From Balamuthia mandrillaris (lineage: Eukaryota): a DNA stretch of 64,000 nt. The notes beneath the pieces are model-generated. The model did no database searches. It was given only the letters and a program-made list of their open reading frames with translations, and was not told where the DNA came from. Below, one piece after another: positions 2,385 through 32,677 of the stretch. Positions within the stretch are counted from its first letter, which is position 1, and the number at the start of each line of letters is the position of its first letter. Both the position numbers and the translations under genes were made by a program. The stretch covers positions 248,001-312,000 of the forward strand of contig JAVKOQ020000003.1 of the NCBI GenBank assembly GCA_031835245.2. Reading direction: 5' to 3'.

Positions 2385-2501
2385 CTTTAGAATTGCAGCA
2401 CAGTCCCTGCTCGGCCAAATGGCGAGGCACCACCCACATCATCCAAAAGGAACTCACGAACGACTCGCCTTTTTCTTTAGAATTGCAGCACAGTCCCTGC
2501 T
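2385..2501. repeat. 27-bp exact direct repeat, two copies 90 bp apart
   Basis: CTTTAGAATTGCAGCACAGTCCCTGCT at 2385-2411 and 2475-2501. Confidence 0.85.
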
Positions 2502-2575
2502 TGGCAAGGAACAGGAACCTTTACTACGAAGGGGGCGAACAAAACATGCAGAGGTATCCCCCCCTTTTATTTTGT

Positions 2576-5500
2576 TTATTCTTCCACTTCGGATAATTCA
2601 TAGTGAGAATGCTCCGCGGATCGAGGAACGTGCTCGCTTTCTTCCTCTTCTGGCCCGTTGGTGGGCAGTTGGGTGTAAGAGGGCTCCACTTTGCGACAGG
2701 CACAGAAAGAGGGGAGAGGTAGGATGTACACAAGGCAGGAAATAAACGGAAGGAGAAGCCACAAGTACCACAATGACACGGAAACATTAGCTGCATCCGC
2801 TCGAATCCAAATGAGGAAGACCAGTCCGCATAAGGTTGCCGTGAGAGTAACTGTTGCATGGACAATTGTCCAGATTCGCCCAGAAGTGGCAGCACGTTGC
2901 CTGACTAGCACCCAAAGAGCAAGGAATTGTGCAACGCCTTCCACAATGACGCAGATAGAAGCAAAAGCAACAAAGACGGATGGCTGTATAGGGGCATCAG
3001 GTCGTCCCAGTACAGAAATGAAGAAGGTGACGCCTAACGTGAGCAACACGGAGGTTGAGCGTAGCCAAGCAGTGTGCTGGCGGTTCTCAGCGTCTTCATA
3101 CTTGATTGGAGGGTAGTGCCAGGTAAACAGCAGGAAGCCCAGCCCTCCCAACAAAAGAAAGAGAAAAGAGAAGAAGATAAGGGCGATGCTCCAAGAAGAT
3201 TCAGCTGGCGTCTGCCCAATGACGAAGGGGCTGAGGAAAATGGTCGCTGCAAGAATAGCGCGCTGGGTAAGTCGCCAGCCAAACTTGTCGCGGAGGTGCC
3301 TTGCAAGAAGCACTTGCAGAGCCAGAAGGTTGAGAAATAGCGCCACCAAGAACATGAAGAGGGCGAGGATAGTGAGATGAGCTGCTCCATAAGGCTCGCA
3401 GTAGGAGAGTAGTGAGGATACACTCCACTGAGCGCCTTTCAGAAGGGATACCAAGGCTGATGACGCAGTTATGTCGTCCGAAGCAAAGGCTTTCTGCAAG
3501 GAAGCAGTGATGACAATGCAACCCCATCCAAGTGGCACTGGAGAGCTAGCATACATCCACCAAGCAAAATATCCAGTAGCTGCAATAACGAAGAAAAATA
3601 CAATGACAAACGTGCTGTGGGTATTATCGGTCGGAGCAGAGGGCCAATGGGTGGTGTTGGAGGATATCAGCAGCTTGAATCCGTGTTGTTGATGGTAGTG
3701 GGAGGGGTCTTGGCATAAGAGAGAATGCTTGCCATCTGAGACTACGCGCAACCGCTCGTAATGCTCACATTTGTGTTCATTGTCTATTGAACAAGGCAAA
3801 CGGTCTTGCAACCAAGAAACATCGGTAATGCCCATTCTCACCCAAGCTTCATCACGGCAGTGTATACGTGGGTCGAGGCAGGTAGACTGATCAAAGCTGA
3901 GCGGACCGTGCGGTGTGATAGCACTATGTTGTGGATCGATAGACACTTGGGCATGTAGCAGCCGAAGAGAGGTGCGGGTTTGGGAGAGTAGCATTGCCTC
4001 CGAAGTGTTATGCACCGCCAAGATAGGTGGAGGGGATATGGAGGTGGTGTTCGATAGGTAAACACTGCTGAAGCCATCGTGGAGGTGTACCGTCAGAGGT
4101 AGACTAGTGTTGGCAAGCCATTCTAGCCAAGCTTGATTGGCTAGAATGGGCTTCTTGCTATGGTTAAAGGAAGTAGAAGAAATACCTCGCAAGGAAGTAG
4201 GGCCAAACACAACAGTACGATTGTAGGTTGGTAGGCTGCTGTTGTTGTGCGGCAATACCAGAGGGAAGAAGTGGATAGCGGAGGGATACTCAGCAGCATC
4301 AACGAAAGAAATGTAGGGAAGTCGCATCATACGAGACGATGCGATGCTGACTACCGAGCCATTACAGGAAGGGCCGTGGAAGCGCAGGGCTGTGGAGTTG
4401 TATTCCTGCCAGTGTCCAAAGTTCCACGAGGAGAAGGAGGAGGAGAAATTACTGGAACTTGAAGTAGCACCACCACAAGCAATCTGCACGGAGCTATCCT
4501 TATTACCACCAACAAAGAGGTTGGTGGAGTTGACTAAGCAAGAGCCTCCATGACTGAGCAGAACTTCCAGGTCATCCTCTACGGTCATGAGATTGCCATG
4601 AAGAAGAGTATGGGACCATGGTTCAGAACCAGAGTCCTTGATCTCAGCTGTAACGTTGGGGAACAGGAGCACCAGCCGGTAGAGTGCCCGTTGTTTGCCA
4701 AGGCCTGTTACCTCGGTCTGTGGAGTGCTAACGTTCAACTCGCCGCTGTGCCGAGAGTAGAAAGTACAGTTTGCCTGAACAGCTTGAGGATCTATGCCAA
4801 GCTGCTGGAGCTGCTCTCCAAGCCACCAAGACACCGGCTCCGTTTGAGCAGAGGCGGTAGAATTGACCAATGAGCCTACTTGACGCAGACAGCCGTTAAA
4901 ATATTGGATGTCGCTAAAGGTATAGTTGAGGAGGGTGTGGCCTCCAAGCCCCACTGCAACCACGCTGACATTAGCCTCTACCACACTGGGAGACACGATA
5001 GTCGTTGTATTGATGGCCAAGCTGTTGTTTAGCATGCGCTCCAAACGAAGGAAGGAAGGTGGGGTGGCAGGAGTGCTGACACGAAGGTCGGCATCAGCTG
5101 GAGTGCCTTTGACAGTGATATTGATTGGCTGTTGGGTGCTGAGGGAAAGGTGATCAATGGCAGAGGCCTGCACAAGCAAACCACCCAAAGTCACTCTTCC
5201 CATCTCTGGCAATTCCATTTTTTCTACCAGCATATTGTAGAGAATGGAATTGTCTGGACCATCCACATTTACAGCAAGAATAGCACCAGTGCCACGCAAA
5301 CTCCATACGTTAACATAGGCGGCGTGATCGAGAGGAGTGGGAAGGTTAACTTCCACCGTCCAGTTACGAGCAGGCTGCAGTGGAGGCTCCGATCGGCCTT
5401 GTCCATCTATTACTACCACTGCCTCTGGCGCAATGCCCACAATCTTGTAGGTGGTATAGGAGGCTGGTTCATACTTGTCCACTTGGCCAGGCACCGTAAC

Positions 5501-8500
5501 GTTGATGATGACTACTTGCTCTCTTACCAGAGAGAACAGGGTAGTTGTTGGTGTGTGCTTCCCCTGAGAGAAAAAGCCAGGGGCCGCAGCTAGAGATACC
5601 ACCCCATAGTCATTACTGGCTTGCTGTAGCTGTGATCGCCTCCGTACAAATGGCAAATCTTGCACCTTCAGTTGCTCTAACGTAAGTACAGATGAGGCAT
5701 AAAGCGGGTCAAGGGGTCCAATGATGCTGCCCTGAATGCTTGGTTGGGGTAATTGACTGTCAGTGTACCATACAGTCACATCATCAGAGGCTCGATCGTC
5801 TCCTAGTCGTGCTACCACAGCACGGCAGGGCATGACCAGCGCCAGACTGTCGTTACCAACTCCAAGATCAAAGAAAGCATGAGCATCCACCCCCCTGGCC
5901 AAGCTAGAAACATTCTGCCAGGTGACCACATCACCACCAGGGCCAAGGTTTACGTTCACTAAAGCAGAGTGAACTTGGCGGCCAACAAAGGTATCATCAG
6001 CCCATCCCGTCTCAATGGTGAGATTCATGAAGCCGGAGTAGACAAGCGGACAGGCTCGGCAGGGTTCATCTCCAGGATCAGCAGGGAAACCGACAGCTTG
6101 CATAAGGGTACACATCCAAGAAGACTGGTTGTAGGAGAGGGGAGCTATGCTTCCGTTCTTCAATTGAGAGGCTAGGCAGGACTGATCCAGGTAGTAGTGC
6201 TGCGGAGGGGCCTGTGGTCCCATGCCCGAGTTGAGGATCACCTTCACTGGCGTGGTAGTCACCTTGGATTGGCCGGGCTGAGGTTGGGCAAGGGCAATTG
6301 GGGCTACAATGTCTCGTAGGGGATGAGTGCTGCTCAGCGCAGATTGGACTTGACCAAGTGCCAGCTGGTTGATTGTTCCCATCAGTAGGATGGGGCTATT
6401 GCTGGACACGACGCGCACATTATTGATTGGCAGGGTGATGTTTTCAGAAGCGGTAAGGTTGGAGGGTAGGGTAAAGTTGAACAAATATTCCGTGCCGAGG
6501 GTACCACGGATGACGTTGAGCTCGGTGCCGTTTTGTCCAAATTGGATAGTGACACGCTCTATTTCATCGAAAAGAAGGTGGAAGTACTGTTTTTCGTTGA
6601 TGGTGTCGAACGCCAGCAAGGCGTTTTCTTGAATGTCGAAGCGCAGTGGGCGATTTTCAGAAGCGGCACGGATATGGATGGTGTCGTTCTGGCCACGGTT
6701 AGAACTGCCGTAGATCCACATAGTGCACTCCAGGGAGGAGATCTTGTTATTCTGTCCGATTTCTACCTCATGGTTGCTGCCATTTTGGAGGAAGATGCGG
6801 ACGTCAGACTTGCCATCGCACCCCGTGATCTGTTGGTAAATGCTGCCACCAGGCGCGCCAATAGAGTAGACGTGAATGGAGTCCTCTCGTACAGGCGCCA
6901 CGAGTGAAAAAGAGGAATGTGTATCAGCAGCACCGATGATGTGGTAGTTCCTGTTTTCCACGCTGGTGTGGCGGATCGTGTGCACGTCGTTAGGACTACC
7001 GTTCCACATGACGAGGGAATAAGGTGAGGCCGTTGCTTTCATGTGCAGCTGTTGCTGCGTGATAAGTGTGAAGTTGGCAGTGTCAATGCCTCCTCCGCCA
7101 ATAAGCTGGGTGTTGCCCTGGATGGCCGTCACCGAGGGGACTACGAAGAGGTCGTCACCAGTGCCAGCCAAAGCTCGTAGGGTGGTGCCAGGTGGGTTCT
7201 CTTGGATCAAATAAGTGGTGGGTTGCTCGCGGTTGCCAGCCACCCTCACCCACTGGTAAGAGGGAGGAAGGTAGAGCTGTAGTTGCTGCGTGTCCGTTGT
7301 GGCCTGCACCAAGTGAGTGGAAATGGTGTAGTGTGCAGCCTCCACGGAGATAGCCAGCGTGTCGCTCTCTCCTGTAACATTGATGGGTCGGCGGTCGTAG
7401 AGTTTCAACGCAGAGTCCAGTGTGACGTTGTTGTTGGCCAAAGATTCCAGAAGGGAAGGAGCTGGCACTCCCGATAAGGCATAGGTAACGCCCGCTGCAG
7501 GGCTGGTTAAGTGCAAAAAGCCACAACGCGTGATGCTCACCCCAGGAACAGACTCTGGAGCGACCAAAGTGGGAGAGACCTTGATGGTGGTGGAATCACG
7601 GAATTCGGAGACTATCAACCTCAACCTGGCGTTGTCATAGGGTGGCAGGTTTACTTGTTGGTGTACCACGTTGCCCACTACCCAGGTGAAAGGAGCAGTG
7701 CCAGGATTGCCCTTGTAAGTAATGGCAGAGGCGGTCAGCTTGCCTCTCGACATATGTGCAAAGCCCGAGTTGAAGCTCACGCCACTTGGTGCATAGTCCA
7801 CACTTAGTCCACCGGCAGGCGTCTCGAACAGATAAAACAGAACACCATCTTGTTCAGCAAGGGAGAGAGGAGCTATGGCTCTTCCTTTTTGATGTCGGCG
7901 TGAGCTTATGTACGTTTCTTCTGCCATCGATGAGGAGGATGCTGGTAGCATAAGCGTTGCTGGGGCGTGGGACCGGAAGCCCACCAGGTCCAAATTGACC
8001 TTGGCGTAGGGATCAGAGATGGCAGGGTAGGTAGCCGGCTGGTTTATGATGGGCCATTCGTGGCCCCAGCTCAGCTTGACAATGTCCCAACAGATCTCAT
8101 CAAAGATAAGCTCAATGCAAGCGCGAATGGCCAGGCCAAAGCGAGCACCTAGCGTAACACGTTTGTCTAGGGCTCCCCACCAGCCGTTCAATTTGACGAG
8201 GTAAGCAATCTCGTTGAAGGTGACCCATCCATTGCCGTCGATATCCACGAAGCGTACCTGGCCCGTTAGAGTGAGCGTCAGGAAGGCTTGACCCTCAAAG
8301 ATGAAGATGCCAATGGACACACTGCCAGTGACGGAGACACGAGCTTGAAGGGGCCAACGTTCTGAACCATCGTTATTGCGGGCAGGCAGGGCCAGGGCGT
8401 GAACCACCATGGCAGGGGAACCTGATTTGAAGGCATCCGCCAGGCCACTGTACATGAGGGCCACTTCACCGAAACTGACACGTAAGCTAGCGGATACGGC

Positions 8501-11500
8501 CAGGCCCAGCTCCACTTCTGGCCAAGGCCAGATTGGGATGGACCAGGATAATCCCATTCCAAACTCCAGGTCTGGCAAGGTTACACCAGCCAAAGGAAAG
8601 TCGATGCCCATCATTGCTGATACCAGGTTCTTGGCCACGTTGTCGAACATGTAGAGACGAACACCAAACTTTCCACTAGTGGTAATGCTCGTATAAAAGC
8701 TAGATACCTCTTTTTTGGCAGCTGCGTCCTTGCCGTGGAACTGTAAGCCTGGAGGAGGCAGCGGTCCCGTAAACTTGGGTTCCACTGTCTCTTTCGTGAA
8801 GTCAAGATAAAAGTCTTGTACAGCCTGTACCACGTTGCACTGGTCCTTGGAGATAACCTTGGTTAGGTCCACTATGAGTTCCAACTTACGATAGACGTCC
8901 ACAAAGGTCTCCAGCATCTCTAGCACGCCTTGGTAGTGACACTCGTCGCCGACCTGGCAGAAGAAGAAGAGCACTTGAATTAAGTTGATGTCATTGCCAA
9001 ACACATGAGACAGGCCGGGAATAGGTCGCAAGAGGATACCGTCAGGACCCAAGACTGGATCCAGCGGGTCCAGCAGCTTGCCGATGGTCTGCTCCGTAGT
9101 CACTCTAACTACATTGATCAGCAGACGGCCAACACAAAAATGGATGTCGGAAATGTAAAACTGAGGGGGGGTCAGGTTGTCGTGTAGCTTCCATTTCCAA
9201 CTCAGACCGAGAGAGGCCTGCCAGTGAGGAAGGGCGTCCAGGGCATCTGGTGTGTGGGCTATCCGTTCCGCCAGCTCTCCGCCCAACCCTATCTCTGCTG
9301 CACCGAACAGCCTTACGTCCATCCAAAAATCGGGATTGAACTGGCTATCGACGGCAAAGCGTCCCTCCAGCTTTGTAGCGTTGCTGCCGGTGGTTACCAG
9401 GCGAAGATCCAGGCCGACATAGCCAATATCGCCAGAAAGGCGACAACCATCCGCCACGCTCATGCTCAACGCTCCCGAGAAAACAGGGTCCTCTGGGAAT
9501 CGCAAGCGTACGCCGTGGGTGTAGTTGAAAACCAATTCCACCGTAAAATTCCAACTTAGTATCAATTCCGCTTCGCACAGGAGTTCCAGCGATGCAAAGC
9601 CATGATCCCCCAGGCCAAAGTCCATGTTTTGGATCGGCTTGCGGACCGTGCTACCAAACGGAAGCAGCCACTTGTATTCGTCTGCATGCACATCAGGTAC
9701 TGCAGGGCAGGGTCCTCGCAACACTCCACTTAGTTCCTGGCAAAGGACTTTGGTGAAAGCCTCCAGCACAAGGCTCTCAATGTAGGTTGGGTCAAAACTG
9801 AAATCGTACTTGGTCAACATGTCGTTGGTCATGTTCGTGATAGCCACCACAAAGTTTTTCGTCAATTCAGGTCCAACGAGGTCTCCGATGGCAGCAGTGA
9901 TGAGATCCTCCACGAGCTTGTCCACCAAGGGTAATCCCAGCTTGACCAAGATACCCCCTCGCCCAAGGAGGCGGGAGAGGAAGGCCTGTATTTCGCTCTC
10001 CCAATCCTGCATGAATATCAGCTCTGAAAAGTAATCGAACAACGTATTCTGAAGCAGGGCTCGTTCCAACATCTCTAAGAAGCCTCCTTCGCAGCCCTGT
10101 TGGATGATATCAGGAAATTGCCGACCAGTAATGAAGTCGTAGATGGAAGAGATATTGATCAATAGTCCGCATTTGTCGTGGGACCCGCTGCCCAGGGCGA
10201 TGAAAGCATCCAGGCCGGCTGTACCTGTCAGGCTTAGTGCAAGTGACCCAGAGGGGGACAGCCTGGCCGTCAAATTTGCTGGATAGCCCAGCCAGCCGTG
10301 TGCTTCCGAGAATGTGACAGAAAGAGGGCCGAATGATGCTTTGATATTGCCATCCATAGCGAACCCCATAGCCAGCGACATGCGGGTTGCTTCGTGATCA
10401 AGAGCCAGAGAGACTCCTCCATCATCTTCAAATCGGGCCAGCAGCCGCAATCGCATGTCAAACCCAGTCTGCAGGTTCATGTCGCTCTCAGCTCCGATGC
10501 CAAAAGGAAAACCAGGGCCAAACAGGGCGGACGTATCAAACCGCAGTCGATCCTCAAAGCTACGGTTGAAGAGAGAGACCTGAAGATCCACGGCCAAAGT
10601 GTGAGCATCCACAAGGGCATTAGCGCAGACGTCCTGTCTATAAACGTCCTTCATCACGGCACAGAGCAGAGCCAGGGTGAAGGGTTCTTTTTTGTTGCAT
10701 ACACTGGACTGAACATCCTTCAGCAGGGAGAGCAAACCGGAATCCAGCAGTCCAGCGAACGTGTGTTGGCTCATTGGAAGGAACTGACGGGCTAGCTCGT
10801 TGGTGGTAAGGATGTCAGACAAGTCTTGGGCAAGAGTCAGCCAGCCACAAACAGAGTTGTTCGTATTCAAAAGGCTTTGGAAGGCAGTGATGCTTTGTTG
10901 AGCACCACTGAAGGCCACCTGCCAACTGGCCAATTGTTGAGTAAAATCGGTCAGGTCGGAGAGGGCGGCTAACTTCCAAGTTCCTATGTTGTGCAGCAGT
11001 ACATCGGGAGGCGGAATGTCCATCTTAACAAAGTCCAGAAGCAGATTCTGCAGGCTAGTTGAGCTATTGACGTTGAAGGCTGCGTTGAAATAGTCAAAGA
11101 ACTTGCTACGGGGAGCGATGAGGTGGCCCATGAGCTGGTAGGGAGCTGAGCCCTTGATAGCCACCTGCAGTTGGCTGCGAGCGGAAATCCTACTGCTGTT
11201 CATGGCGAGCACGGCATAGCGTCCCGTGGCTTGCGGTAGGGAGGCTTCCAGGTCGAGGCTCAAACCCATAGAAGTGTTCTTTGAGAGCAGAAGAGCACGT
11301 GCGGGCACATTGGTAGCGTTCTGGAGAGCGGGAACATGGCCCAACGGGTTCATGATGCTTAGCGACAATGGCACCAGCCACCGTACTTCCTCTTGTCCTT
11401 CTTGTGTGGCTGGCAAAGAAACATACCTAAGATCAAAGCGAACTTGAGGAATGCTTTGCAGCAAGGGATCTCCCGGCATTTCACTGACGGTAAACATGGG

Positions 11501-14500
11501 CCGCAATGTTTCGTTAATCTGTGGCAAAACTTCCTGCAAGAGAGCATCTCGCAAGAGCTTTCCAGGAGAGAGGACGATAGAGTGGGTGACGGTCATTGTG
11601 ATGGGCTGTGCAGAAGGAGAGCGCAACTGGGCGCCAATCATCAAAGAGAAGGTATTGCCGGGCGTTGACGGCACCATCGTAGCGTTTATGGTGAAGGGGC
11701 CAGTGCTACTAAAGTTGGTCATGACGGTGATGTTGCCACGGCCGCCCAATGGAGGTACATCTAGCACGGTAACCATGGTGGCTGAAAGGGAAGCCTTAAC
11801 CTCTCCGCCCAGTCGCCCGCCGCTAACGTCCATAGAAATCACATTATCCATGGCATTAAAACGGGAGGTGATCGCAAAGTCAGTCTCGTGTCGGTGGTCA
11901 GCTGCAATACCCTGTTGAATGGCCACAAATTGTTGTGGGTAGACTTGGCGGAGGGCAGGCGGTACCAGCTGTGGTACATCGTCTCGTTGAATGGTAGTAT
12001 AGACAGGGGGACGATAGGCAAAGATGTTGTCGTAGCCGCTGAATACTCCATGTAACAACCAAGATAAGTCCTCCCAGGTGGCGAATGCCGGTACTGTGCC
12101 TGCGGTCCAACGTCCAATAAAGCTAACATTCCCAACGGGTTCAGTTGTAACCTCTAAGTCCCACACCGCTCCGGCAACGGATGGCACCAGAGCAACGGTA
12201 CCACAGGCAGCACCACCCCGATCGGCCACCACAGCAGCCAGAAAAGGATCCAAATGGCACCCTTGAAGGGCCACGTTGAGGCTGTTAGACAGTTGGTCAA
12301 GGCTCTGTGTAAGCAGAGAGTCGGCCTTGCATATGGTCATGGTCCCTTTGTTGATGGTCACGTTCATAGAGAGGGGACCCTGAGGTCCGGACGGGCAGAA
12401 TGGTTGGGACACCACAAGCTGATGTCTCTCTGCAGCTGTGAGAGCGTGTAACCATGGCAACTTGGCCTTCAGCAAGTCCTCGAAGCCGTGCACCTTGCTC
12501 AGTGGTTCGGCCAATGGGGAGAGGGGGACGTTCAAAGCCGAACCAAAGGCCTGCGGTAGAGAACCAAGAATGCCCTCCTTAAGAACAGTAAGGGCAGAGA
12601 GGGAAGAAACCATGGAGCCGCCATCTGCTGCGTTCACACTGATTTGGGGTGGCAATTCTCTCTTAGTCAGGTCTGAGGCTTGGATTTGGACCTTCAACAT
12701 TCCTCCTAAATCAGTAGCCACGTCCATTGTCAGTGTGAGAGAAGAGGAAGAGGGCAAATTGAGCGTGAGGTCAGCGGAGGCTTGTGCCATAGTTCCAGAA
12801 AGCATATTGAAGGTGAAGGGTATGGTCCAGTCAACGTGTTTGGCCCCGCCGTGAACAGAGTACTCGGTAAGGTCCCCGCTGCCTGAAGGGGTGACGGTGA
12901 AGCGGAGGCGCGTGTAAATATTCATGGGGAGTGACAATCGTCGCGTGTCTGTCATAAATTTCCAGGTGGACCTCTCGGTGGCGAGGGTAGCCGTCACTTG
13001 CCTATGAACCAGGATATCCACTCTCAACGCAGAATTGAGGGGGGCAACGGAGGCGAACAGGATGAGGCTTGGGTCGCTGGCGGCCTCCGCCCGGATCAAA
13101 TCACACAGGCTATTGGCCAGTTTCCATCCACTCATTGGTTGAGATAAGGTGGAGAGGGCATTAGCGAGCACAGTGATCACCGCAGCAAAGCTGTTGTTCT
13201 GGCCTGCCATGATACCGAAGTTATAAGACAATGGATACAGCACGTCGCTAGCCCATCTTTGAACCTCTATGTTATGGGCAGCAGCATTAAGGCCTGCCAC
13301 GTAGCTGGAAGGCTGATAAGGCACGTCGATGGCAAGTTCTCCAGTCTCGGTAAGCCCAATAAGCGTTCCAGGAATGATGCCATGCAACGCAGAGGAGACA
13401 CAAGCTTGAATACGTGCAAGTCGTGTGGTATGGTCATAGACAATGTTCGCGCAGGTGAACATGGGGTTCCCAACAGCGGGCCATTGGGCTTGCATGGAAA
13501 CCACCGCCGAAAACACGAGTGGGGTGGAAAGGATGACCTTATCTCCAGAGATAGAGACAGAAGTCGTAAGGTATCCAGAGACTTGGGAGGCCTGTAATAC
13601 AGAGAGAGAGCTGTCTATAGCTGGCGCTTGGAAGCGAGGATCGATGGCGGGATAACGTTGTCTAACTTGGCGAGCCAGCTCTTGGATGGCTGAGTTAGCA
13701 TTTTGTACAGCTAGATCATCGCCGCCGACCGTTAATGAGCCTTTAATATTTGGAGTCTGGATGACTAGGCTCGTTGTGTTGCCGTCTCGGGAGGTGATGG
13801 GACTAAGACCACGCCTCTCTCCGAACCAGCGCAAGAAATCCTGAAGGGATGGTGCCTGGGTTTGTGAGTGATAGGTGGTAAGGAAAGGTTGGAGGCCGGT
13901 TGAGTCTGTGGGGAAGAGGTTCTTGACCGCCTGATTCACCACAGCGACGGGAGTTGTTAACAAGGAGCGGATCTGTTCAAAAAGCTTGCCGATGAAGGCC
14001 AGTTCTCCTGCGGGAAGAGAGTCTAGCGGGAGAACTGGGATAAGAATACCGGCATGGACGGATGAAAACAGGTTGTAGGGGAGAACGCTGTACATCTGAA
14101 CGTTTCCCTTAGAGCTTCCTTCTCTTTCTCCTCCTTTGGCCACTTGTGCTGATGTCTTTGCTGGAAGACGGCCTGGGGCTGGGGGAGGAGAGGAAGAGAC
14201 GGGTAGGTCGCCTCCAGCAATGATGCCAGAGGTAAGAACTGGGATGGTCCTTAACAAATTGGCCGTAGCTGTGTCATCAGAGAAAAGAGCTAAGGTTGGC
14301 CAACCGCTGACAGCATCGGCAGCGGCAGTGGTAGTCAGAGGAGCTATGGCAGTAAGATAGATGCCCAGAAAGACAGATGAGTTGTCACAGCGAAATAGGG
14401 CGTGGGTGTGTGCTCCCATTCCCCTGGCTGTTATGCGCTCCTCCGTAGCAAAGATATCGAGGGTAAGGTAGCTGGACAACGTGTCCGGGAGGAGGAACAA

Positions 14501-15600
14501 GGAAGAACAGAGCGACTGTTGGCTTGCTCCCTGCAATACTGAGGCTGTTACCAGCCGCTCCAGAGAGGTAGAGAGGGAAGTAGGGCATTCAGCAGGACCG
14601 TTACAAGAGGTCCTTGATTGCAACAAAGCGCCTTGTTGGGAGGGACCCTCCCACAAAAGGTCGCCACCCGTTATTCTGATGGAAGTAGAAGGCAGTGAGA
14701 CAGAATCCAAGAAAGCTCCGCGGATGGAAGAAGAGCGTAGAGAGGAAGGAGTGGCGGAGAATTGGGAGAGACGAAGATTTGGGCGAGCGGCAAGGGAAAG
14801 AGTGGCCATTGTGAGGTTCCGCAAAGACGGTTTCACACTAGGTGTGGGTCTATAGAGAAAGGCAGCAGGCATACCGTCCAGCAGGTCTCCATCCACGATG
14901 AGAAGGGAAGCGGCAGAGGGATTGCTGCTGCTGAGATCCGTTTGCAAATCACCTCTCCAAACGAGGGGAAAGCTCGACATTGCCGAAACTGGGAAACTCC
15001 CTCCTACCTTGCTGAGGGTCCCCAATACAATGCTCGAAAATGGAGTGGTAGTGCCAGAGCTTGCTGGAAGCGTTCCATTCACCGTCAAACGAAAGGTAAC
15101 ACTGATGTTCAAGCTTAGAACTTGCTGTTGAACATCCTCGACATGGACGGTAACCGTCCTTCTCAGCTTTCCACCGCTGCCAGACAAGGTGCCATCCGCC
15201 AGACGGTTTGGTTGCAAAGCGTCGTTTGCAATGTCCACCCAACCCGAGTCGTAGGAAAAGGACCGGCCGCTGTTGGAGACACAGTTACTTTGAACCCATG
15301 AAAAGTCGGCTAAAGCGGTTCCCGTGAAGCCGTCTATCCAAGGTACTCTTGCTGTTTGCACCGAAAACAAAAGAAAAAAAAACAAGAAAAGAGAAAGCCG
15401 GTGATAAGAAAAAGATCTAGTAGTGGTGTACGCAAAAATAGAACCAATCGAAGAGGACAAGAAACGACACCTGTGAGGGAGTTAAGGCCTTGGCAGAGAG
15501 GAGGTAATGGGGCAGCCGTAACGCAGCATGCGCAGGCCGCCAACAACAACAATGCCGAAAGTAACGGCCGCGGTTGCAGGGATAAGGGAGCGCCTCTCAT
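2576..15600 (-). CDS. Giant (~4300 aa) surface protein: signal peptide, very large ectodomain with RTX-like repeats and an EF-hand-like loop, C-terminal multi-pass membrane domain
   Basis: A 12.8-kb uninterrupted ORF (2576-15460). A signal-peptide exon MRGAPLSLQPRPLLSALLLLAACACCVTAA starts at 15600 and joins by a probable phase-1 intron ~15353-15470. It has DIDGNGWVTFNE, motifs GTGDDLF, GGGGIDT and GVGNDSL, and about 8-9 hydrophobic segments in the last ~330 aa. Confidence 0.85.
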
Positions 15601-15804
15601 GCTGGCCGTCTTCCGGCTGGAGATAGAGACTGGTAGTAGAAAAGGCACTAGGGCGGTGGTGGTGGTGGGTGCTGCTGGTCAAAGGTATTGCGCAAAGACG
15701 CCAAACTAAAATTTGTATTAAACTAAAAATTGCGCCTTTTGTTTTGTTGATTTCATTCCTGCAGCTGGCCACTCACTACAAACTTCCTGTGCCCTCATGA
15801 CACC

Positions 15805-15845
15805 CCCTAACCCTTAACCCTAACCCTTAACCCTAACCCTAACCC
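15805..15845. repeat. Interstitial telomere-like repeat (CCCTAA/CCCTTAA)6
   Basis: ccctaa cccttaa ccctaa cccttaa ccctaa ccctaa ccc lies in the divergent intergenic region. Confidence 0.9.
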
Positions 15846-15906
15846 AAATCTTCAGAGCAAAACAAGAAAGAAAAGAAGAAATAAGTAAGAAGGAAGGGGG
15901 CGAAGC

Positions 15907-16452
15907 ATGGAGGAAGCAAGCGAACCGTGGGGAGGGGAGGTGGAGTTTTCTCCCGATGAAGATGAAGGACAGCACACAAAGGGTAAAAAAGCTCAGAAGA
16001 AAGCTAGAAAGCTGGCCGCTCAGATAGGGGGCTTCCAAAAGCTGGGCCTTAGCCAGGAGGTGCTCAAGGGAGTGTTGCGCAAGGGCTACCGTCTTCCCAC
16101 ACCCATTCAACGCAAAGCTATTCCTCTCATCTTGAGCGGGAATGATGTTGTGGGCATGGCACGAACTGGTAGCGGCAAGACAGCTGCCTTCGTTTTACCC
16201 CTTCTGCACAAGTTGCAGAGCCACTCAATGAACTATGGAGCTCGCGCCTTGATCCTCTCCCCCACGCGCGAGCTTGCCTACCAAACCATGCGGTTCCTCA
16301 AGGACCTTGGTCGCGGCACTGACCTCCGTGCCTGCCTCCTCGTTGGTGGAGACGACATGGAAGACCAGTTCGCCCAACTGACTCAAAACCCCGATGTGTT
16401 AGTACTGTCTCTTTTCTTCTTCTCTTTCCACTCTTCGCCTCTGCTTCTCTCG

Positions 16453-16501
<49 letters not shown>

Positions 16502-19148
16502 TAGCTCACTATCTCCAATCCACCAACCAGCCTAATAGCAACGCCGGGTCGGTTGTTGCACCACTTGGTGGAAGTAGGAATGAGCCTTAAAACAGTTGAG
16601 TATTTAGTATTTGATGAAGCAGACAGGTAGGTGTTTCTTTCTCTCACACTTGCTCAAACAATAATGGGAGGGGCGTGCATTGGGTGCGTTTTTTATTTGC
16701 TCTAACTTATGTTTTGAAAGATTGTTCGAACTGGGTTTTGCAGAGCAGCTCACACAAATCATGGAGAAGCTTTCTCCCACCAGACAGACCATGCTTTTCA
16801 GTGCCACGCTTCCAAGCAAACTTGTTGAGTTCACCAAAGCAGGTCTAACCAATCCAGTGCTGCTGCGCCTCGACACAGATACATCCATCAGCCCAAACTT
16901 AAAGATGGCATTCTTCACTGTTCGTCCTCAAGAAAAAACGCCTGCTCTCCTTTATCTCCTTAAAACCGTGGTACCACCACAGCAGCAAACTATAGTCTTT
17001 GTAGCCACCCGGTAAGCTCTTTACTTTTGTTTTGTCCCTCTTTTTATTCTTTCTGTTTTCCTTTTCTTTTTAGCTGCTTTTTCTTCTTCATCTTTCTGTT
17101 GTGATTCTCTGCACTCTGAGAGTAACATGTGAGATGGTGTGCCCCAATAGTCATCACTGCGAATACTTGCATGAACTATTGGAACGAGCAGATATTACCG
17201 TGACGATGATATACGGCGCGATGGATCAAACAGCCCGTAAAATCAATCTGCAGCGTTTCCGTCAAGCCAAAGCCATGGTGCTGCTTGTAACTGATGTGGC
17301 AGCAAGAGGCATTGATCTTCCTTTGTTGGACAATGTCATTAACTATGACTTTCCTGCACGAGCCAAGCTTTTTGTTCATCGTGTGGGAAGAGTAGCAAGA
17401 GCAGGCAGAAGTGGCACGGCCTACTCTTTGGTTGCCCCTGAGGAAGTGCCCTTCATGCTTGACCTCCATCTTTTCTTAGGCCGACCTGCGGTCAACAAGG
17501 TGCCCGCTGGCACCACCTATCACGACTCTCAGGTGTACTATGGCAATGTACCGTCCTACCTGCTCGAATCTCAGATTGACTTTACTCGCCAATGTCATTC
17601 CATCCACTCTGATCTGGTTTGTAAACACTTGTTCAGCCTTCCTGCTTTCCTTTGCTTTCCTAGATCAACTTCTGCTCACTATTTATATAGGAGAGTCTCC
17701 ATAAAGTTGTGCAGAATGCGTACAAACAATACGCCAAAACTCGTCCCACCCCATCCGCAGAATCTGTTAAGAGAGCCAAAGAATTGCCATGTGACAACTT
17801 GCACCCACTCTTTGGTATTCCATCTACTGCTGCTGGCCATATAGCCATCCCCTTTTTGTGTTCATGTTCGCAGTTAAGTTTTTGGCTTTAACCAACTGTT
17901 TGTATGATCATTTTAGCACAAGAAGTAAAATCGGCGGAGAGAGCAAGACTGGAGCTTCTGAACAGCCTTAAAAACTTTCGTCCTCCGCAGACCATATTGG
18001 AGATGGGAGATGGTGATGTGGGCAGCGCCAGTAGGAGAAACGCTAAGCACACCTCCAACAAGCTTCGTCACACGGATATCTCAGAAGCCTCTGTTATGAT
18101 GCGCGAAAAACGGTCCCGCCACGATGCCATCATTCAGAAAAAGCAGGAGCAAGTGAAACAATCCAGCAAGCAAGAGCAAACCTTTACAGAAGAACAACTA
18201 GATAGACACGATGCAGAGGTGGATGAGCAGGACGAAACACAAGACCTCAGCACAGACTCATCGGGCAATCCTGAAACAAAACAGAAGAAGAAGAATAAGA
18301 AGAAGAAGAATAAGCAAGGCCTAGGTGGGTGGCTGCCAATGTGTTGTCCCTCCTAATCTGCTACTCAGTGCTAACCAGTACGTCACAACTAGGAGTCAAG
18401 AGTAGCAAGCATACCCCTGCACAAAGCTTCAAGGATGAAGAATTTTTCATGAGCCCATTTCCACAGAACCAACATAAAGAAGACGCGTGCGTGTCTCTCC
18501 CTTTTGATTCTTTTTGCTGCGGCTGCTGCTGCTGCTTCTCCTTTTGCTTTCTCCGAACAACAGGTTCTCATTTTCTTACTATCATTGTTTGGGGTTAGGT
18601 TGAGCGTGAACGTGGGCAGCGAGATGGCAGAAGCCAGCCTGGATCTTCTGGCGGACGATAAACAAGATCTGATGAAACAGCGCAGCGCTATGCGTTGGGA
18701 CAGAAAGAAAAAGAAGTTTGTGCACGCGAGTGCGTTGGCCGAAAAATCCAAAAGCAAAAAGATTATGTTCAATGAAAGCGGAGCAGCCGTTGGCAAAAAC
18801 AACAAGCTCAACAAGTACAAGCAATGGATGGAAAAGACCAAAGCACGCATTCCCGTCGCCGGTGAGAGAGAGGGCACCTTCAACGCAGTCCAGACGGACG
18901 GCCCCCACCTCGGAAAGCGCTTTCGCCATAAGGCTACTTCTGCCTCCTCTTCCGCTGGCGCTTCTTCTGAGCTCAAAACGAAGGAGCAGATGCTGAAGGA
19001 GAGAAAACGCAAAGCCAAGATTAAAGAAAAGCAACAAGGCTCTCGCAAAAAGCGGCGCACCGGTGAAGGCCACTTTACTCCAAAGGCTCTTCGCGCGCAG
19101 CAGGCCCACAGCGCCAGAACCCGAAGCAAAGTAATGATTTACAAGTAG
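15907..19148 (+). CDS. DDX54: DEAD-box RNA helicase DDX54/Dbp10 (60S biogenesis), multi-exon
   Basis: [56 protein letters not shown], and a Dbp10-type C-terminal WDRKKKKF motif. Confidence 0.93.
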
Positions 19149-19282
19149 TAGGTGACCATCTCACAAAAAATCAAAGAGACAGAGAACATAAGAATAGAGA
19201 TAAAAGTGTTTTCTGAAAAAAAAAGTCTTTTGGACGAGATAAAGGGAGGATAAACTTTAAGAGCACAGACCCAGAAGCATGC

Positions 19283-20525
19283 TCACCAGAGGGACTCCCT
19301 CTTCTGTTTGTCAGCACGATCCTTCTTCTCAATTTCAGAGATGATACGTGTGAGCCTTCTGTACTCCTGCATCTTACGGGTGTGGGAGTTGTTGGGATAA
19401 GGCACAGTGGGAGCGAAGCCGGTAAACTCTTGCTCCTCTATCACCAAGAAGCCGTCTTTTCCGGTCTTGAAAACCACTCTGTTGCCACCATATTTTCTGA
19501 GCGTGCCTTCGGGATCTTTTGACATCTCCGCGTCTCGTCTTGCGCGCTCTTCATCGGAAAGATAATCCACTCCTTTCAAACGCTTCTTGATCTTTGGGGT
19601 TTTATCTTCTTTCTTAACGAGCATAGGTTCTTTTCCAATAGTGGCTTGTTCTTCGTGTGGGTGCTCATCCCCTACATAAATGCGGAGCCTCTCCAAGCGG
19701 GCGTACCGAGTTTTGTTTTTGGGTAGCTGTCAAAGCAAGCCATCAACAAATACCCCAATGGCCACACGGAGGGGAGAGGGAGAGGGAGAGGGAGAGGGAG
19801 AGGGAGAGGGAGAGGGAGAGGGAGAGGGAGAGGGAGAGGGAGAGGGAGGGAGGGAGAGGGAGAGGGAGAGGGAGGGAGAGGGAGAGGGAGAGGGAGAGGG
19901 AGGGAGGGAGAGGGAGAGGAGAGGGAGAGGGAGAGGGAGAGGGAGAGGGAGAGGGAGAGGGAGAGGGAGAGGGAGAGGGAGAGGGAGAGGGAGAGGGAGA
20001 GGGAGAGGGAGAGGGAGAGGGAGAGGGAGAGGGAGAGGGAGAGGGAGAGGGAGAGGGAGAGGGAGAGGGAGAGGGAGCAAAAGACACTGACCATCCCAGA
20101 AACAGCCTTAATCAAAATCTTATCGGGGTGTTTTCTGAGCATATGCTTGGCGGACACCTCTTTGAGTCCACCAGGGTAGCCAGTGTGCCAGCGGTACAAT
20201 TTTTGTTCCCATTTCTCACCAGTGAACTTAAGCTTTTCTACATTCTTGACCACAACGTAGTCCCCATTGTCCACTTGTTACGTACATTGCACACAATGTC
20301 GAGAGATGAAAAAAGGCGGAGGAGTGTTAGCATCAGAGCAATGACAGTATAAAGAAGAAGAGCAAGTCTACCGGTCGGAGAATAGATGGGCTTGTGTTTG
20401 CCTTGCAACAAGCGAGCGATCTGTTCAGCGAGTCGACCCACGCGGAAGCCCTCCGCATCAATGACGTGCCACATGGGGTTGCGCGAAAGCGGCTGACGCA
20501 GCATAGTGCTGAAAGGGGAGGCCAT
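19283..20525 (-). CDS. MRPL13: Mitochondrial ribosomal protein uL13m, multi-exon
   Basis: [15 protein letters not shown]...[46 protein letters not shown]. Confidence 0.9.
19769..20077. repeat. (GAGAGG)n microsatellite, ~300 bp, intronic in uL13m
   Basis: Near-perfect hexamer array. Confidence 0.95.
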
Positions 20526-20795
20526 ATTGACGGGAGTTTGCTCACAGAGAATAAGGGTAAACAAAAAAAAACCTACGGGGCACCGCCGGTGGTGGGTGGT
20601 GGCGGTGGCTAAACCCTATGGGCTTTCCTTCTTTCTTCTTTTGCTGCCGACAAGTCAGGTATTTTGTGTAGACATGCTCCCTGCAAACTTTGACCACAAA
20701 AGCTCCGCATTGCCAGCAGGCCTGCAGCCCAAGGGGAAGGACGAAACCGCCTCTACTCATCCAAGGAAGAAGAAGAAGAAGAAGAAGATACCACC

Positions 20796-27715: not shown

Positions 27716-29531
27716 ATGGGCCAACATCACGCTAAGCTAGACAAAGGTACCGCCGGCGAGGATTACTGTTTACCTTCAGTTCTCTTAGTTGACAATTGTC
27801 TCCGTTAATCAGAGAAGTTGAACAGAACAAGGAACGAAATTGCTCGGGAAATCGTAACCACTGAGGAAAGTTACGTCCAGAGCCTTGATCTTGCAATCAA
27901 TGTCTTTTTTGAGCCCTTGCTGCATAGTCTTTCTAACGACCGTAGTCCTATCCTAAGCGAGTCTGAAGTTACTGCCATTTTTTCTACAATTAAGGACATT
28001 TTCGCTCTTCACGGTAGCTTCTTGTCAAAGCTTAACGAGCGTTACAGCGAATGGACCGAGAAAACCAAGCTGGCGGATATATTTTTGGCGCAGGTGCGAA
28101 GCTCTGCAAACAAAACCATCTGTGCTGCTGACCCACTTGTGCTTTGTCAACTACAGGTAGACAGCTTTAAAGTGTATACCTCATATGGTATGAAACAGGA
28201 ACAAACCCGTCGCTGTTAACTTTGGTTTTTCCTTTCTGCACAAAGGAAAAAACCAAAGTTTGAACAACTTTGTGTTGTTGTTTTTTTTCTGCCTTTTTCC
28301 CCATACTAATTTTGCTTTATTTTTGGTGTTCCATTGATCGGCTTGATCTTGGCACCGCCTTAGTGAACAACTATGACCTCTCGATTAAAACCTTGGTGGA
28401 ATGCCAAAAGCGAAAGAAGGTCATCCGCTTTTTAGAAGGGGTTCACCATGAACATGCAGTTCTGGGTTTGTCAAACTACCTTATAATGCCAATACAACGT
28501 TTGCCAAGGTTTTAGCATCATGATATCATCTTGCTCTATCTTTCTCTTTCCTCCTTTCAATCTTATTTTTGCTTTGCTTGTCTCATCAGTTCTTCGTTTT
28601 TAGATATGTGCTCTTACTTCAAGAGCTTTTGAAAAAGACAACAAAACAGCACCGAGACTACAAAAACCTTAAAAAGGCTATCAAAGAAATGAAACAAGTC
28701 ACTGCATACATTAATGAACAAAAACGAATGGCAGAAGTAAAACAGCAAATGTTAAACCTTCAAAGCCATTTTGCTGAGCCCTTGGTACTTATTTTAAATC
28801 TTTACTAACAAACAAGAACTAATGAACTAAATTCTTATAATTAGGACTTTTTCTCTAATGATCAACGATTATTGATAACCAAAGGACAGTTTGAATGTAA
28901 AGAATCAAATGCATCAAATCTTTTAATTGTTCCTGTGGTTTTGTCTTTTTTTCTATTTACAGATGTTTTAGTATTAGCACAAGAAAGGTAAACCATTTTA
29001 TGTTTATTTATGTTTTTTAATATTCACAAAAATATAAAATCATTTTATTTTATTATTTATGTTTTTTAATATTCACAAAAACAGACAATCAAGAAGTTCT
29101 TTTTTTTCCAGTTTTTTTCAAGCTCCTTTTTCTTGGCAGTTAATAGCATATGCTCCTATAACTAATGTGGAACTGAATTTACATGATTTATGTCAAGGTA
29201 AATTTCTATAAAGATTTTTTTAAAAATATTAATTATATTTTAAATAGGTGCCATATTGACTCTTAAAACCAAAGAAAGTAATTTCAAAGAAGCAAATACT
29301 ACATTTATTATTAATGTTAAAGATAATAATGTTCAAAGTGCTTTACAAGAATTGAAATATGATATCCTTCCATCACTTCAAAAAAAAGCTAAAAAAAATA
29401 ATCATCATTTTATAGATATTATTCCACAAAATGAAACATTTCAAAAAACAAAACTTGTAAAAGATGATTCAAAAATAGAAAAACAAAAAGAAAAAACAAA
29501 TTTAATACGAAGATATACATTAAAATTATAA
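27716..29531 (+). CDS. Dbl-family RhoGEF (DH-PH), multi-exon; the spliced frame is intact
   Basis: EIVTTEESYVQSL, YLIMPIQRLPR|YVLLLQELLK, PH-like FFLFTDVLVLA. Exons splice in frame from ATG 27716 to TAA 29531. Confidence 0.85.
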
Positions 29532-29764
29532 TTATAATTAAGGACAACAAATAAATATTTTAATAATTTCTTTAAAAGTCTATAAATAAACATCTTATTA
29601 CTATTACTACTAATATATGTTTTATTTTAACTATTTTTAAAAGCTTTGTTGTAAGTTATCCTGAGAGGAAAAAAAAGAAAAAGCAAGGAGAGGTAGTATT
29701 TAAGCTAAAAGAATTATCCAAAAAAGAAAAGCAGAGAATATCAACATAAAAGGATAAAGAGAGA

Positions 29765-30033
29765 TGTTAAAAAGGGCAAATAACATGAACAAACAGGGCC
29801 AAAACGTATTATTCAAAGAGGGAACAAAGGAACAAAGGGTGTCAAAAGAGAAAGGTGTGGTGTGAATGAAACAAAACTAACTAACTAAAAGAAAGAAAGA
29901 AGGAAGCAATGGAATAAATGGAAGAAGTCTAGTGATGTGGCAGTAGGCAATTGGTCCATGTCAGGGATGTTGACAGTAAGAAAAGAAAGGAAAGGGGGCA
30001 ACAGAGTTAATATGTTGAGAGTAATTCTCAACA
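29765..30033 (+). mobile_element. Solo copy of the ~269-bp LTR-like repeat
   Basis: TGTTAAAAAGG...ATTCTCAACA, homologous to 35899-36167, with GAGA on both sides (putative 4-bp TSD). Confidence 0.8.
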
Positions 30034-32130: not shown

Positions 32131-32677
32131 TTAACAAACGTTGATAATACAAAGCCAACACCTCTTTGACAACCACAAGACTTCATGGGATGAAAGCCAG
32201 ACTAGTCGTTGGTTCTAATCTTTCTTTCAACAGCTCTATTGCCCTTTCCTCTTTTCTTTCACAGGTATCATGACTACTCATTCATGGCACTCAAGCGCCT
32301 GTGCTTACATTTTCCTTTCTCTCCTTTCCTCCTTTTCCTTTCTCTTGGTGTACTTTCAAGCAAAGACAGAGATTCCTTCCTGTTGTCTTTTTTAGAATAA
32401 GTCACACTTCACAAACACTTTAACTGCAAGTCAAGAATGAGAGAGTACTTAGAAAAGAAATGTGTTGATGGAAGCAAAAAAGAAGGATACATTTAATGCT
32501 GCTTCCTGCAATGCAAAAAAAGATTCAGAAGTAACATAGAGAACTGAAGGAAGAGTTTAAGGTTAGCAACTTGGTACTCATTCACTCCAAGATGATGTCA
32601 ATTGGTGAGTCTAAGAAACTTTGATATGGTTAAAAAGGAGGACATCATAAGATTATTAAAATCTGTTCACAAACAAA

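Follow-up and report, generated by a model that had tools for sequence, protein, structure and literature searches.

We identified in Balamuthia mandrillaris a gene for a 4,301-amino-acid protein that belongs to an old, unnamed protist family of giant multi-pass membrane proteins. Its residues ~1540-2480, including a DxDxNG loop, are homologous to part of giant bacterial RTX-repeat proteins. The gene lies on the minus strand of the window, the 64,000-nucleotide stretch of contig JAVKOQ020000003.1 analyzed here. We give about even odds (roughly 0.5) to the protein being a cell-surface receptor for adhesion or contact, stiffened by calcium, that cycles through endosomes.

Gene structure and locus

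The minus strand is stop-free for 4,301 codons at 2576-15481, the runner-up stop-free run in the window being 779 codons. The protein is encoded by two exons, with its start ATG at 15600, and is identical to B. mandrillaris QOT17_000772 (KAL6079658.1; P0002); the start and exon junction of that NCBI model agree with those predicted from the sequence. The gene elements are as follows.

15471..15600, minus strand: exon 1, 130 nt, with the start codon and the predicted signal peptide, aa 1 to ~29 (splice phase, hydropathy peak at aa 12-30, NCBI model)
15352..15470, minus strand: sole intron, 119 nt, GT..AG, phase 1 (predicted joint, from sequence; matches NCBI model KAL6079658.1)
2576..15351, minus strand: exon 2, 12,776 nt, aa 44-4301 and stop (open frame, RNA reads, spliced contig set)

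An earlier note had described a protein of ~4300 residues with a signal peptide, encoded almost wholly by one 12.8-kb exon among spliced neighbors, and this description was borne out. Exon 2 is covered by RNA reads and by a spliced contig set, and every indel listed for it from other isolates is of 3 nt. The intron joint (15470-15352) did not appear in the reads; repeats at 15358-15396 were skipped in read matching. The gene is transcribed, with a depth of ~1-3x in the Balamuthia RNA sampled, and it is under purifying selection among isolates, the 38 listed changes comprising 22 synonymous and 16 non-synonymous ones (dN/dS ~0.24). The gene is probably single-copy; flat DNA contig depth in run X1 argues against near-identical copies only. 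The neighbors are spliced eukaryotic genes (joints at 1098-1160, 16397-16531 and 16624-16719) that encode the Pfam domains PH, DEAD/DBP10CT, CBM48, RRP12 and Skp1.

The eukaryotic family

A profile of aa 1501-2600 searched against 1.84 billion clusters matched 248 of them at E<=1e-3, with 77 passing the stricter cut of E<=1e-30. Family members are 3.7-5.5 kaa long, have a common layout and are without a Pfam model. Five of the ten that we looked up are named, from Naegleria lovaniensis, N. gruberi, Salpingoeca rosetta, S. infusionum and Acanthoeca spectabilis; most members carry no species name, and for these "eukaryotic" refers to composition and layout. The taxonomy of the best matches, which the earlier note had proposed as a check, is eukaryotic: they fall in this wide, unannotated family, and bacterial homologues are present too.

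Identified homologues include S. rosetta PTSG_02609, N. gruberi NAEGRDRAFT_52947, N. lovaniensis C9374_011231 and the EukProt entry m51a1_g10786, whose prefix we take to be that of Mastigamoeba balamuthi. A table in the PMC7971027 supplement lists Thecamonas trahens AMSG_05791, known here from that entry alone, as the best match to the S. rosetta member. All five are annotated as hypothetical and have no Pfam family. The protist homologues are collinear with the Balamuthia protein at 20-27% identity and have the same signal peptide, core and stalk. Collinearity among the long members runs along the ectodomain, each N-terminal segment being matched in 22-27 of 27. Most long homologues also share the Cys-rich segment and the membrane module. 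Both Naegleria records, unlike the Balamuthia protein, are without the module, and the records of five members of at least 3,700 aa have no complete one.

10982..15349, minus strand: aa 45-1500, N-terminal part of the ectodomain, conserved among the eukaryotic members, with no bacterial match (segment matches in long members; hhalign against bacterial flanks)

A word-based search for shorter relatives found none among 7,994 candidates, and tblastn of two segments of the protein against plasmids found none. Pattern scans from a family alignment gave 98 pattern matches in genome contigs and 182 in metagenome contigs, of which 0 were confirmed. Among openly accessible texts, judged from titles and the starts of abstracts, no paper on the family was found. 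The term "ptsg02609" occurs in 0 of the main texts searched, the four supplements of PMC11934334 gave no match, and "QOT17", "adhesin" and "RTX" do not occur in the main text of PMC10471605.

A bacterial module in the core

The block LDPLDPVL..RPIPGLS..TLPDLEFG..DIDGNG had been likened to giant calcium-binding RTX-type proteins, and reciprocal profile searches with decoys upheld homology.

8042..10858, minus strand: aa ~1542-2480, module shared with giant RTX-repeat proteins of bacteria, built of helices plus long antiparallel strands (reciprocal profiles, hhalign, model from aa 1830)

A profile of 77 eukaryote-type rows, with P0109 left out, recovered all 18 bacterial-type proteins, with scores of 64-185 bits for these and <=4.1 for reversed decoys. 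The reverse search, with a bacteria-only profile, matched aa 1950-2432 of the Balamuthia protein at 109.6 bits, and hhalign against the bacterial proteins aligned aa 1542-1725 with a probability of 96.8. The claim of a bacterial-looking ectodomain thus holds for ~940 of ~3,900 residues; aa 45-1500 and 2481-3950 gave no match in hhalign against the bacterial flanks (probabilities <=0.5 and <=1.5, respectively).

The homologous ~940-aa module of helices and long strands occurs in giant secreted proteins, labeled calcium-binding or RTX toxin-like, of Intrasporangium calvum (P0162, a "calcium-binding protein" matched at E 2e-18) and Rubripirellula (P0164) and in the metagenomic P0112, P0140 and P0146. 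In bacteria the module closes with a D-P-N-x-D-G-K loop, after which come Gly/Asp repeats, and PF00353 is present in 13 of the 15 bacterial-type proteins scanned; the Balamuthia protein, unlike these relatives, has no canonical RTX arrays after the module. The bacterial proteins also differ from it in being Cys-poor and Asp/Gly-rich, with many canonical nonapeptides and no multi-pass anchor, and they carry variable extra domains (S8 peptidase, FG-GAP, SdrD_B). Within the phylum of one carrier, an actinobacterium, 3 of the 401 sampled genomes had a protein of this kind. Proteins with the D-P-N-x-D-G-K module, a class that we define here, have no Pfam family of their own. The family offers a first handle on this large, uncharacterized group of bacterial giant proteins.

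As a lead only, one Atlas match (0.90) connects the core with a cyanobacterial hypothetical cluster.

Calcium-binding motifs and predicted fold

All nine strings quoted in the earlier note are present in the protein: AGTGDDLFVV at aa 2772, GGGGIDTANF at 2795, TGWADDTFVG at 3158, LGPGGDVVTW at 3179, LGVGNDSLAL at 3206, the DxDxNG string at 2413, LDPLDPVL at 2137, RPIPGLS at 2152 and TLPDLEFG at 2301. The predicted calcium-binding features are the following.

8210..8245, minus strand: DxDxNG loop DIDGNGWVTFNE, aa 2413-2424, EF-hand-like ligand pattern, strand-loop-helix, predicted Ca2+ site (alignment and model)
6452..7849, minus strand: predicted parallel beta-solenoid stalk, aa 2545-3010 (modeled part), carrying two GxGxD turns, at aa 2772 and aa 2795 (pLDDT, fold match 6sus)
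5783..6010, minus strand: four further GxGxD-type turns in a second cluster, aa 3158-3233 (sequence and family conservation)

The DxDxNG motif by itself is within chance (25 of 200 shuffles have one), yet it aligns to a conserved loop, in support of the loop reported at ~8208-8246. Conservation is high in the bacterial rows (n=19; D1 17, G6 19, E12 17), and the loop is degenerate in about half of the eukaryotic ones (n=54; D1 30, G6 29, E12 27). Relaxed xGxGxDx[hydrophobic] turns number four, where shuffles give 0.47 and none of the 200 has as many. There are no strict GGxGxDx[LIVF] matches in the protein and no canonical tandem RTX nonapeptides, the turns being spaced 21-27 residues apart instead; the four relaxed turns are separated by 23-27 residues within each pair. 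The aspartates of the second cluster are conserved in most of 20 long members (D3163 in 20, D3184 in 18, D3211 in 17, D3233 in 18), which is suggestive of Ca2+ as part of the fold.

The structure model, which begins at aa 1830, has an overall pLDDT of 85, and aa 2545-3010 are mostly above 90. This segment is predicted to fold as an RTX beta-roll-like solenoid. Its best fold match among 48,161 chains is 6sus (RTX blocks IV-V; Z 12.7, rmsd 4.0, 216 residues aligned), at a Z score where repeat proteins may share merely a common arrangement, SufD-type beta-helices scoring 10.4. The RTX resemblance that had been read from the GxGDD motifs therefore stands for the predicted solenoid and falls for the canonical tandem repeats. 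No internal repeats were found by BLAST, and profile comparison gave weak similarity only inside the stalk (probability 62-76). Pfam and NCBIfam scans of the protein returned nothing above cut-off, PF00353 being absent; no recognized ligand-binding, hydrolase, toxin or acylation domain was found in Pfam-type scans. The family alignment had no match by sequence in the PDB, and a search of a viral fold library gave nothing meaningful.

The core (model residues 114-657) had no confident fold match when modeled together with the stalk. Its sole matches were weak, to beta-barrel and bridge-like proteins (Z 6-7; LPD-3 at E 0.11). These matches, and a modeled core built from long strands and helices, could be taken to indicate a beta-sheet groove that carries lipid or polymer and moves this cargo into the membrane together with the multi-pass module. 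We regard this as very unlikely; such matches do not rise above background and have large rmsd values, and the bacterial relatives lack the membrane module.

Membrane module and cytoplasmic tail

The Cys-rich juxtamembrane segment and multi-pass membrane module described earlier were both found.

3713..3880, minus strand: Cys-rich juxtamembrane segment, aa 3868-3923 (five cysteines, at 3868, 3875, 3897, 3905 and 3923)
2702..3610, minus strand: multi-pass membrane module, aa 3958-4260, eight clear helices, likely nine (hydropathy; ninth from the family alignment)
2576..2701, minus strand: predicted cytoplasmic tail, aa 4261-4301, with the YxxPhi-type sorting motif YTQL at aa 4269-4272, nt 2677-2666 (motif scan)

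A C-x-x-P-x-x-x-C pattern in the Cys-rich segment is conserved in the family alignment. The membrane module is shared by the long members, 28 of 28 leave-one-out scores lying above reversed and shuffled controls; it had no match in Pfam or among PDB sequences, and aa 3801-4301 had no usable Atlas match. The many N-glycosylation sequons claimed for the protein number 64 against 28 expected and are densest beside the membrane. Cytoplasmic tails across the family are enriched in sorting motifs: of 23 tails, 7 have [DE]xxxL[LI], against a shuffle mean of 1.6 and with none of 1000 shuffles as high, and 12 have YxxPhi, against a shuffle mean of 6.9 and with 7 of 1000 shuffles as high.

Proposed role

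The signal peptide is predicted to direct the N-terminal part of 3,900 residues into the secretory lumen, where it would be glycosylated and disulfide-bonded. From aa 2545 onward a beta-roll-like stalk is predicted, with about nine helices as the anchor. The DxDxNG loop and the GxGxD turns may be sites for lumenal or extracellular Ca2+, whose binding would stiffen the stalk; the stalk would hold the bacterial-type core and the N-terminal head off the membrane to touch a surface or prey. The tyrosine and dileucine motifs of the tail could then let adaptor complexes retrieve the protein. Adhesion or contact is a candidate role for the family.

Two published datasets show higher expression of the S. 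rosetta member in cells attached to a surface. In the first, PTSG_02609 has a log2 ratio of 5.4 for attached over colony cells and 8.4 for attached over swimming cells (PMC4054682 supplement), an effect carried mostly by a single one of the three attached samples (FPKM 12.7, 0.96 and 0.36; PMC4054682). In the second, the thecate over swimming ratio is log2 4.8 (padj 6e-4), with a base mean of only 7.7 (PMC12572184 supplement). Thecate-up genes number 1,410, and the PTSG_02609 signal is therefore non-specific (PMC4054682). The earlier suggestion of prey or surface sensing or adhesion gains from this upregulation, the role itself being one that we infer.

The protein could instead reside in the membrane of an endosome, lysosome or food vacuole, with its glycosylated part lumenal, holding or processing ingested prey material. 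The acidic dileucines and dense glycosylation suit a lysosome or food vacuole equally well; the YxxPhi motifs also speak for this reading, and the named eukaryotic carriers are all known as phagotrophs. We nevertheless consider this location unlikely: the S. rosetta member is strongly biased to attached cells, though swimming colonies feed too; the long RTX-like stalk suits outward reach; and domain scans found no hydrolase domain. A role in anchoring or scaffolding a secreted coat (theca, cyst wall or glycocalyx) at the membrane, in place of receptor function towards outside surfaces, would fit the upregulation in thecate, theca-secreting cells and the short tail without a signaling domain. 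Expression is low for a structural part in both S. rosetta and Balamuthia, and the family is kept in lineages whose coats are chemically different; a scaffold role seems quite improbable to us. For the adhesion or contact receptor, the expression of the S. rosetta member in attached cells makes the idea directly testable, and knockouts are possible in S. rosetta.

Origin and significance

The eukaryotic rows fall on one side of a long branch with a support of 100 in two trees, both without an independent root and open to artificial joining of long branches. A long-stemmed single eukaryotic group fits one very old acquisition, and we infer that a single bacterium-to-eukaryote transfer may have been fused to the anchor before the split of Discoba, Amoebozoa and opisthokonts. 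Later transfers between eukaryotes may also have spread the gene. Because a wide and old eukaryotic family already has the membrane module, any transfer and fusion would long predate Balamuthia. The earlier proposal of a horizontally acquired adhesin fused to a eukaryotic module is thus supported in its bacterial homology, whereas its best matches are eukaryotic and the transfer would be far older than this lineage.

A recent bacterial import into Balamuthia itself would explain the nearly intron-free 12.8-kb exon amid spliced neighbors as well as the bacterial homology of the core. However, every bacterial protein scores far below the full-length relatives from Naegleria and choanoflagellates, the S. 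rosetta gene is also intron-poor (2 introns in 14 kb), exon GC (0.51-0.54) is similar to that of nearby coding DNA, and cysteines are conserved family-wide against 0-1.4% Cys in the bacterial proteins. The family data rule out such an import unless all of those records are contaminations, and we hold it to be extremely improbable.

A broader scenario, possible but doubtful in our estimation, is that the last common ancestor of eukaryotes, or a close lineage, acquired a giant calcium-binding surface protein of bacteria and joined it to an anchor of nine helices bearing sorting signals. The result would be an overlooked ancestral receptor for adhesion and prey contact, kept from Naegleria to choanoflagellates in surface-feeding protists and lost in animals, fungi and plants. 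Surface and prey recognition in protists and the receptors of early eukaryotes are open questions with few candidate molecules, and this family spans Discoba, Amoebozoa and choanoflagellates with a demonstrable bacterial module. B. mandrillaris is a human pathogen, and the protein is a candidate surface antigen, without a tie to disease here.

Comparison with known systems

Adhesion GPCRs and the fungal Pkd2/Flc-type TRP-like proteins combine a large ectodomain, a Cys-rich juxtamembrane segment, a multi-helix anchor and a short tail, and the Balamuthia protein resembles both in these features. Adhesion GPCRs have 7 helices, whereas the Balamuthia protein has 8-9, and no GAIN/GPS, 7tm or TRP Pfam match was found in it or in 17 relatives scanned. 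The 9-helix module of the Pkd2/Flc TRP-like proteins (PF06011) has a similar helix pattern by eye alone, with no Pfam match to this type at E<=1 in the Balamuthia protein or at E<=0.1 in 13 relatives.

EF-hand loops follow the 12-residue pattern D-x-[DN]-x-[DN]-G-x-[VIL]-x-x-x-E, to which aa 2413-2424 conform. EF-hand proteins are helix-loop-helix and usually paired, whereas the model has a single site in a strand-loop-short strand-helix arrangement, and the protein had no EF-hand Pfam match.

RTX proteins are defined by tandem nine-residue GGxGxDxUx repeats, type I secretion directed by a non-cleavable signal at the C terminus, and a parallel beta-roll fold with Ca2+ as an integral part (PMC6891781). 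The Balamuthia protein has none of the tandem repeats and, in place of type I secretion, an N-terminal signal peptide and C-terminal membrane helices encoded by a eukaryotic gene; the beta-roll fold is present in its predicted structure. With RTX adhesins and beta-rolls such as CyaA blocks IV-V and the serralysins, it shares a predicted beta-roll-like stalk with Asp turns and a very large size, and RTX beta-rolls supply the top structural matches to its model.

Gene model and transcription

The giant gene encodes QOT17_000772, annotated by NCBI as a hypothetical protein of Balamuthia mandrillaris, which agrees with the product that we deduced from a short first exon and one long frame.

2576-15481, minus strand: open frame of 4,301 codons; all other frames in the window have 779 or fewer
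ATG at 15600, minus strand: exon 1, 130 nt, with a signal-peptide-like segment, from the sequence
Between exon 1 and the long frame, minus strand: predicted GT..AG intron of 119 nt that joins both in phase

An earlier note had described a protein of about 4300 aa with a signal peptide, encoded almost entirely by one exon, and the gene structure bears this out. All nine motifs that it quoted occur in the product, and the many N-glycosylation sequons it remarked on number 64, against 28 expected. The flanking genes are ordinary eukaryotic genes and are spliced.

The giant gene is intact, and its transcript level is low. Most of its exon is covered at about 0.5-3x in three RNA runs (3-5% sampled), a signal that carries no strand because the reads map to both. 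Contig set X8, which we guess to be RNA, contains spliced joints in the adjacent helicase gene; it spans the greater part of the exon, and its depth is zero in the bins on either side. No splice joint of the giant gene itself was seen in the sampled RNA runs or X8. A first set of 40 listed changes (103 more lay beyond these) held 38 within the ORF, 22 synonymous and 16 non-synonymous (dN/dS about 0.24), with no stop among the 38. Among those listed in a second set (216 more beyond), 34 further in-ORF changes comprised 20 synonymous and 14 non-synonymous, with four repeats and one same-codon pair left out. All indels in the ORF among the changes listed are 3 nt long.

Six head-to-tail telomere-like units (CCCTAA/CCCTTAA; 15805-15842), the sole such array in the window, lie in the head-to-head gap of about 300 bp between the giant gene and the DDX54/DBP10-like helicase gene, and may be an interstitial repeat or else act in the promoter in the manner of a telo-box. 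Elsewhere, stop-interrupted frames at 34490-35650 (minus) and 39747-40421 (plus) resemble, by eye, remnants of gag and reverse-transcriptase zinc-binding sequences from decayed retroelements; Pfam gave no match in the two frames scanned. At about 28000-34000 the sequence is AT-rich (GC 0.31-0.37); a gene that looks RhoGEF-like by eye ends within this stretch, which also has an imperfect tandem repeat near 31,400-32,000.

A family of giant protist proteins

A three-row profile of aa 1501-2600, searched against 1.84 billion clusters, matched 248 at E<=1e-3, of which 119 also pass 1e-10 and 77 pass 1e-30. Among the best 150 of the 248, which we inspected, the top matches contain cysteine, and many span 3,700-5,500 aa and have 5-8 hydrophobic segments at their C-terminal end. 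From aa 45 to 3944, between 18 and 27 of the 27 long members match each segment of QOT17_000772. Homology extends to the membrane module in 28 members, for which each leave-one-out score exceeded reversed and shuffled controls, some narrowly, with an underlying alignment that had contained the left-out row. Five of ten members looked up belong to Naegleria lovaniensis, N. gruberi, Salpingoeca rosetta, S. infusionum and Acanthoeca spectabilis. EukProt record m51a1_g10786 is also a member, its prefix presumably denoting Mastigamoeba balamuthi. Pfam had no family above cut-off in QOT17_000772 or 17 relatives scanned. Judged by sequence, QOT17_000772 is one of a wide family without a name, and from the want of names and Pfam models we infer that this family may be missing from animals, fungi and plants. 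In supplementary entries of PMC7971027, the S. rosetta member has two introns, its best match in Thecamonas trahens, and empty alien-index cells.

The public models of Naegleria records P0013 and P0017 lack the membrane module; in P0017 the Cys-rich segment abuts tail-like sequence, suggesting a gene-model error. Two other family records have, by eye, a lipase-like N-terminus (P0059) and a formin-like C-terminus (P0060), probably from read-through of adjacent genes by the gene caller.

Bacterial homology of the core

The bacterial-type matches are Cys-poor and Asp/Gly-rich, and 13 of 15 scanned carry RTX repeats. They rank below the Cys-containing eukaryote-type family that supplies the top matches (best bacterial E with the three-row profile 4.7e-13); examples with names include Intrasporangium calvum (E 2e-18) and Rubripirellula (E 6e-5). 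A 77-row eukaryote-type profile, which holds no RTX region, scored all 18 bacterial-type proteins at 64-185 bits (reversed copies, 4.1 at most). Reciprocally, a bacteria-only profile aligned with aa 1950-2432 of QOT17_000772 at 109.6 bits, with LDPLDPVL, RPIPGLS, TLPDLEFG and DIDGNG falling on conserved bacterial motifs, and hhalign paired the bacterial upstream part with aa 1542-1725 (probability 96.8). The DxDxNG loop is near-invariant in bacteria, degenerate in about half of the eukaryotic rows and of full pattern in Balamuthia. The likeness to bacterial RTX-type proteins proposed in the earlier note therefore holds for aa ~1540-2480, but aa 45-1500 and 2481-3950 have no match within the 700-aa bacterial flanks. 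The observation behind the proposal is real, and these alignments indicate a bacterial link that is real, though partial.

In module trees, the eukaryote-type rows (47 in FastTree; 22 in a quick IQ-TREE run, LG+G4) are set apart by a long branch (support 100); the trees have no independent root, carry a warning of long branches meeting, and exclude short rows, two insertion-bearing rows and one near-duplicate. Because module architectures vary across several bacterial phyla against one fixed eukaryotic layout, transfer would have run from bacterium to eukaryote. A recent bacterial import is exceedingly improbable.

A module copy also occurs at residues ~4625-5315 of P0109 (6,758 aa, ENA), behind a Cys-rich, eukaryote-looking N-terminus. 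It scores 295 bits against the bacterial profile, above the family's scores, and neither tree places it within the family; it may represent a second, separate acquisition. Twenty Intrasporangiaceae-like genomes encode the Intrasporangium-type giant protein, with 67-86% identity. Among 21 bacterial loci (L001-L021) its match lies at about 10001-20560 in most, with a signal-peptide-like start, so the RTX-repeat proteins of these monoderm bacteria likely do without type I secretion.

Predicted structure

The fold of aa 1830-3020, predicted from 43 rows (four bacterial), had a pLDDT of 85 and a pTM of 0.65. Residues 1830-2490 were modelled as a mix of helices and long strands, and none of 48,161 chains matched this part with confidence. 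Residues 2545-3010 were modelled as a parallel beta-solenoid, a beta-roll-like fold of the kind that the earlier note had called for, and the best of the 48,161 chains was the CyaA RTX domain (Z 12.7, rmsd 4.0, 216 residues), followed by serralysin rolls (10-11) and SufD helices (10.4). Scores at this level may mean just a common arrangement. Aspartates in a second cluster of turns, beyond the modelled stretch and conserved among 20 long members (D3163 in 20, D3184 in 18, D3211 in 17, D3233 in 18), point in the same direction as an RTX-roll reading of the solenoid. Relaxed GxGxD turns number four, against 0.47 in shuffles (at least four in 0 of 200), a pattern count over the protein found no strict RTX nonapeptides, and DxDxNG by itself is not significant against shuffles. 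That the protein forms a cargo-carrying groove seems very unlikely.

Possible function

The most likely reading, to which we give a probability of roughly one-half, is a surface adhesion or contact receptor. Such a protein would enter the secretory route and become glycosylated, Ca2+ would stiffen its stalk, as PMC6891781 describes for RTX rolls, about nine helices would anchor it in the membrane, and its cytoplasmic tail would mediate retrieval.

Supplementary entries of PMC4054682 give FPKM values for PTSG_02609, the S. rosetta member, of 12.7, 0.96 and 0.36 in attached cells, 0.017 in swimming cells and 0-0.52 in colonies, and its attached-cell lists include the gene. In supplementary data of PMC12572184 it is about 22-fold up in thecate cells (log2 4.8, padj 6e-4, base mean 7.7). 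The thecate-up pattern is common to 1,410 genes (PMC4054682), which counts against its functional weight. That the protein serves to anchor a theca or cyst coat is a decidedly doubtful alternative.

Acidic dileucine and YxxPhi motifs are adaptor-binding sorting signals. Among 23 family tails (those under 15 aa and one near-duplicate left out), acidic dileucines occur in 7 (1.6 expected) and YxxPhi in 12 (6.9 expected); the Balamuthia tail carries YTQL. These putative signals fit a cycling receptor and a vacuole resident alike, and a food-vacuole membrane protein, which they would suit equally, is a possible though unlikely reading.

Literature searches of main texts and some supplements found no published work on the family; the present analysis contributes homology to bacteria that holds in both directions, a model of the beta-roll, the expression of one member in attached cells, and the motifs in the tails. 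QOT17_000772 is like the RTX adhesins in build but differs from RTX proteins in having neither tandem nonapeptides nor type I secretion, and for these reasons we do not regard it as an RTX protein.
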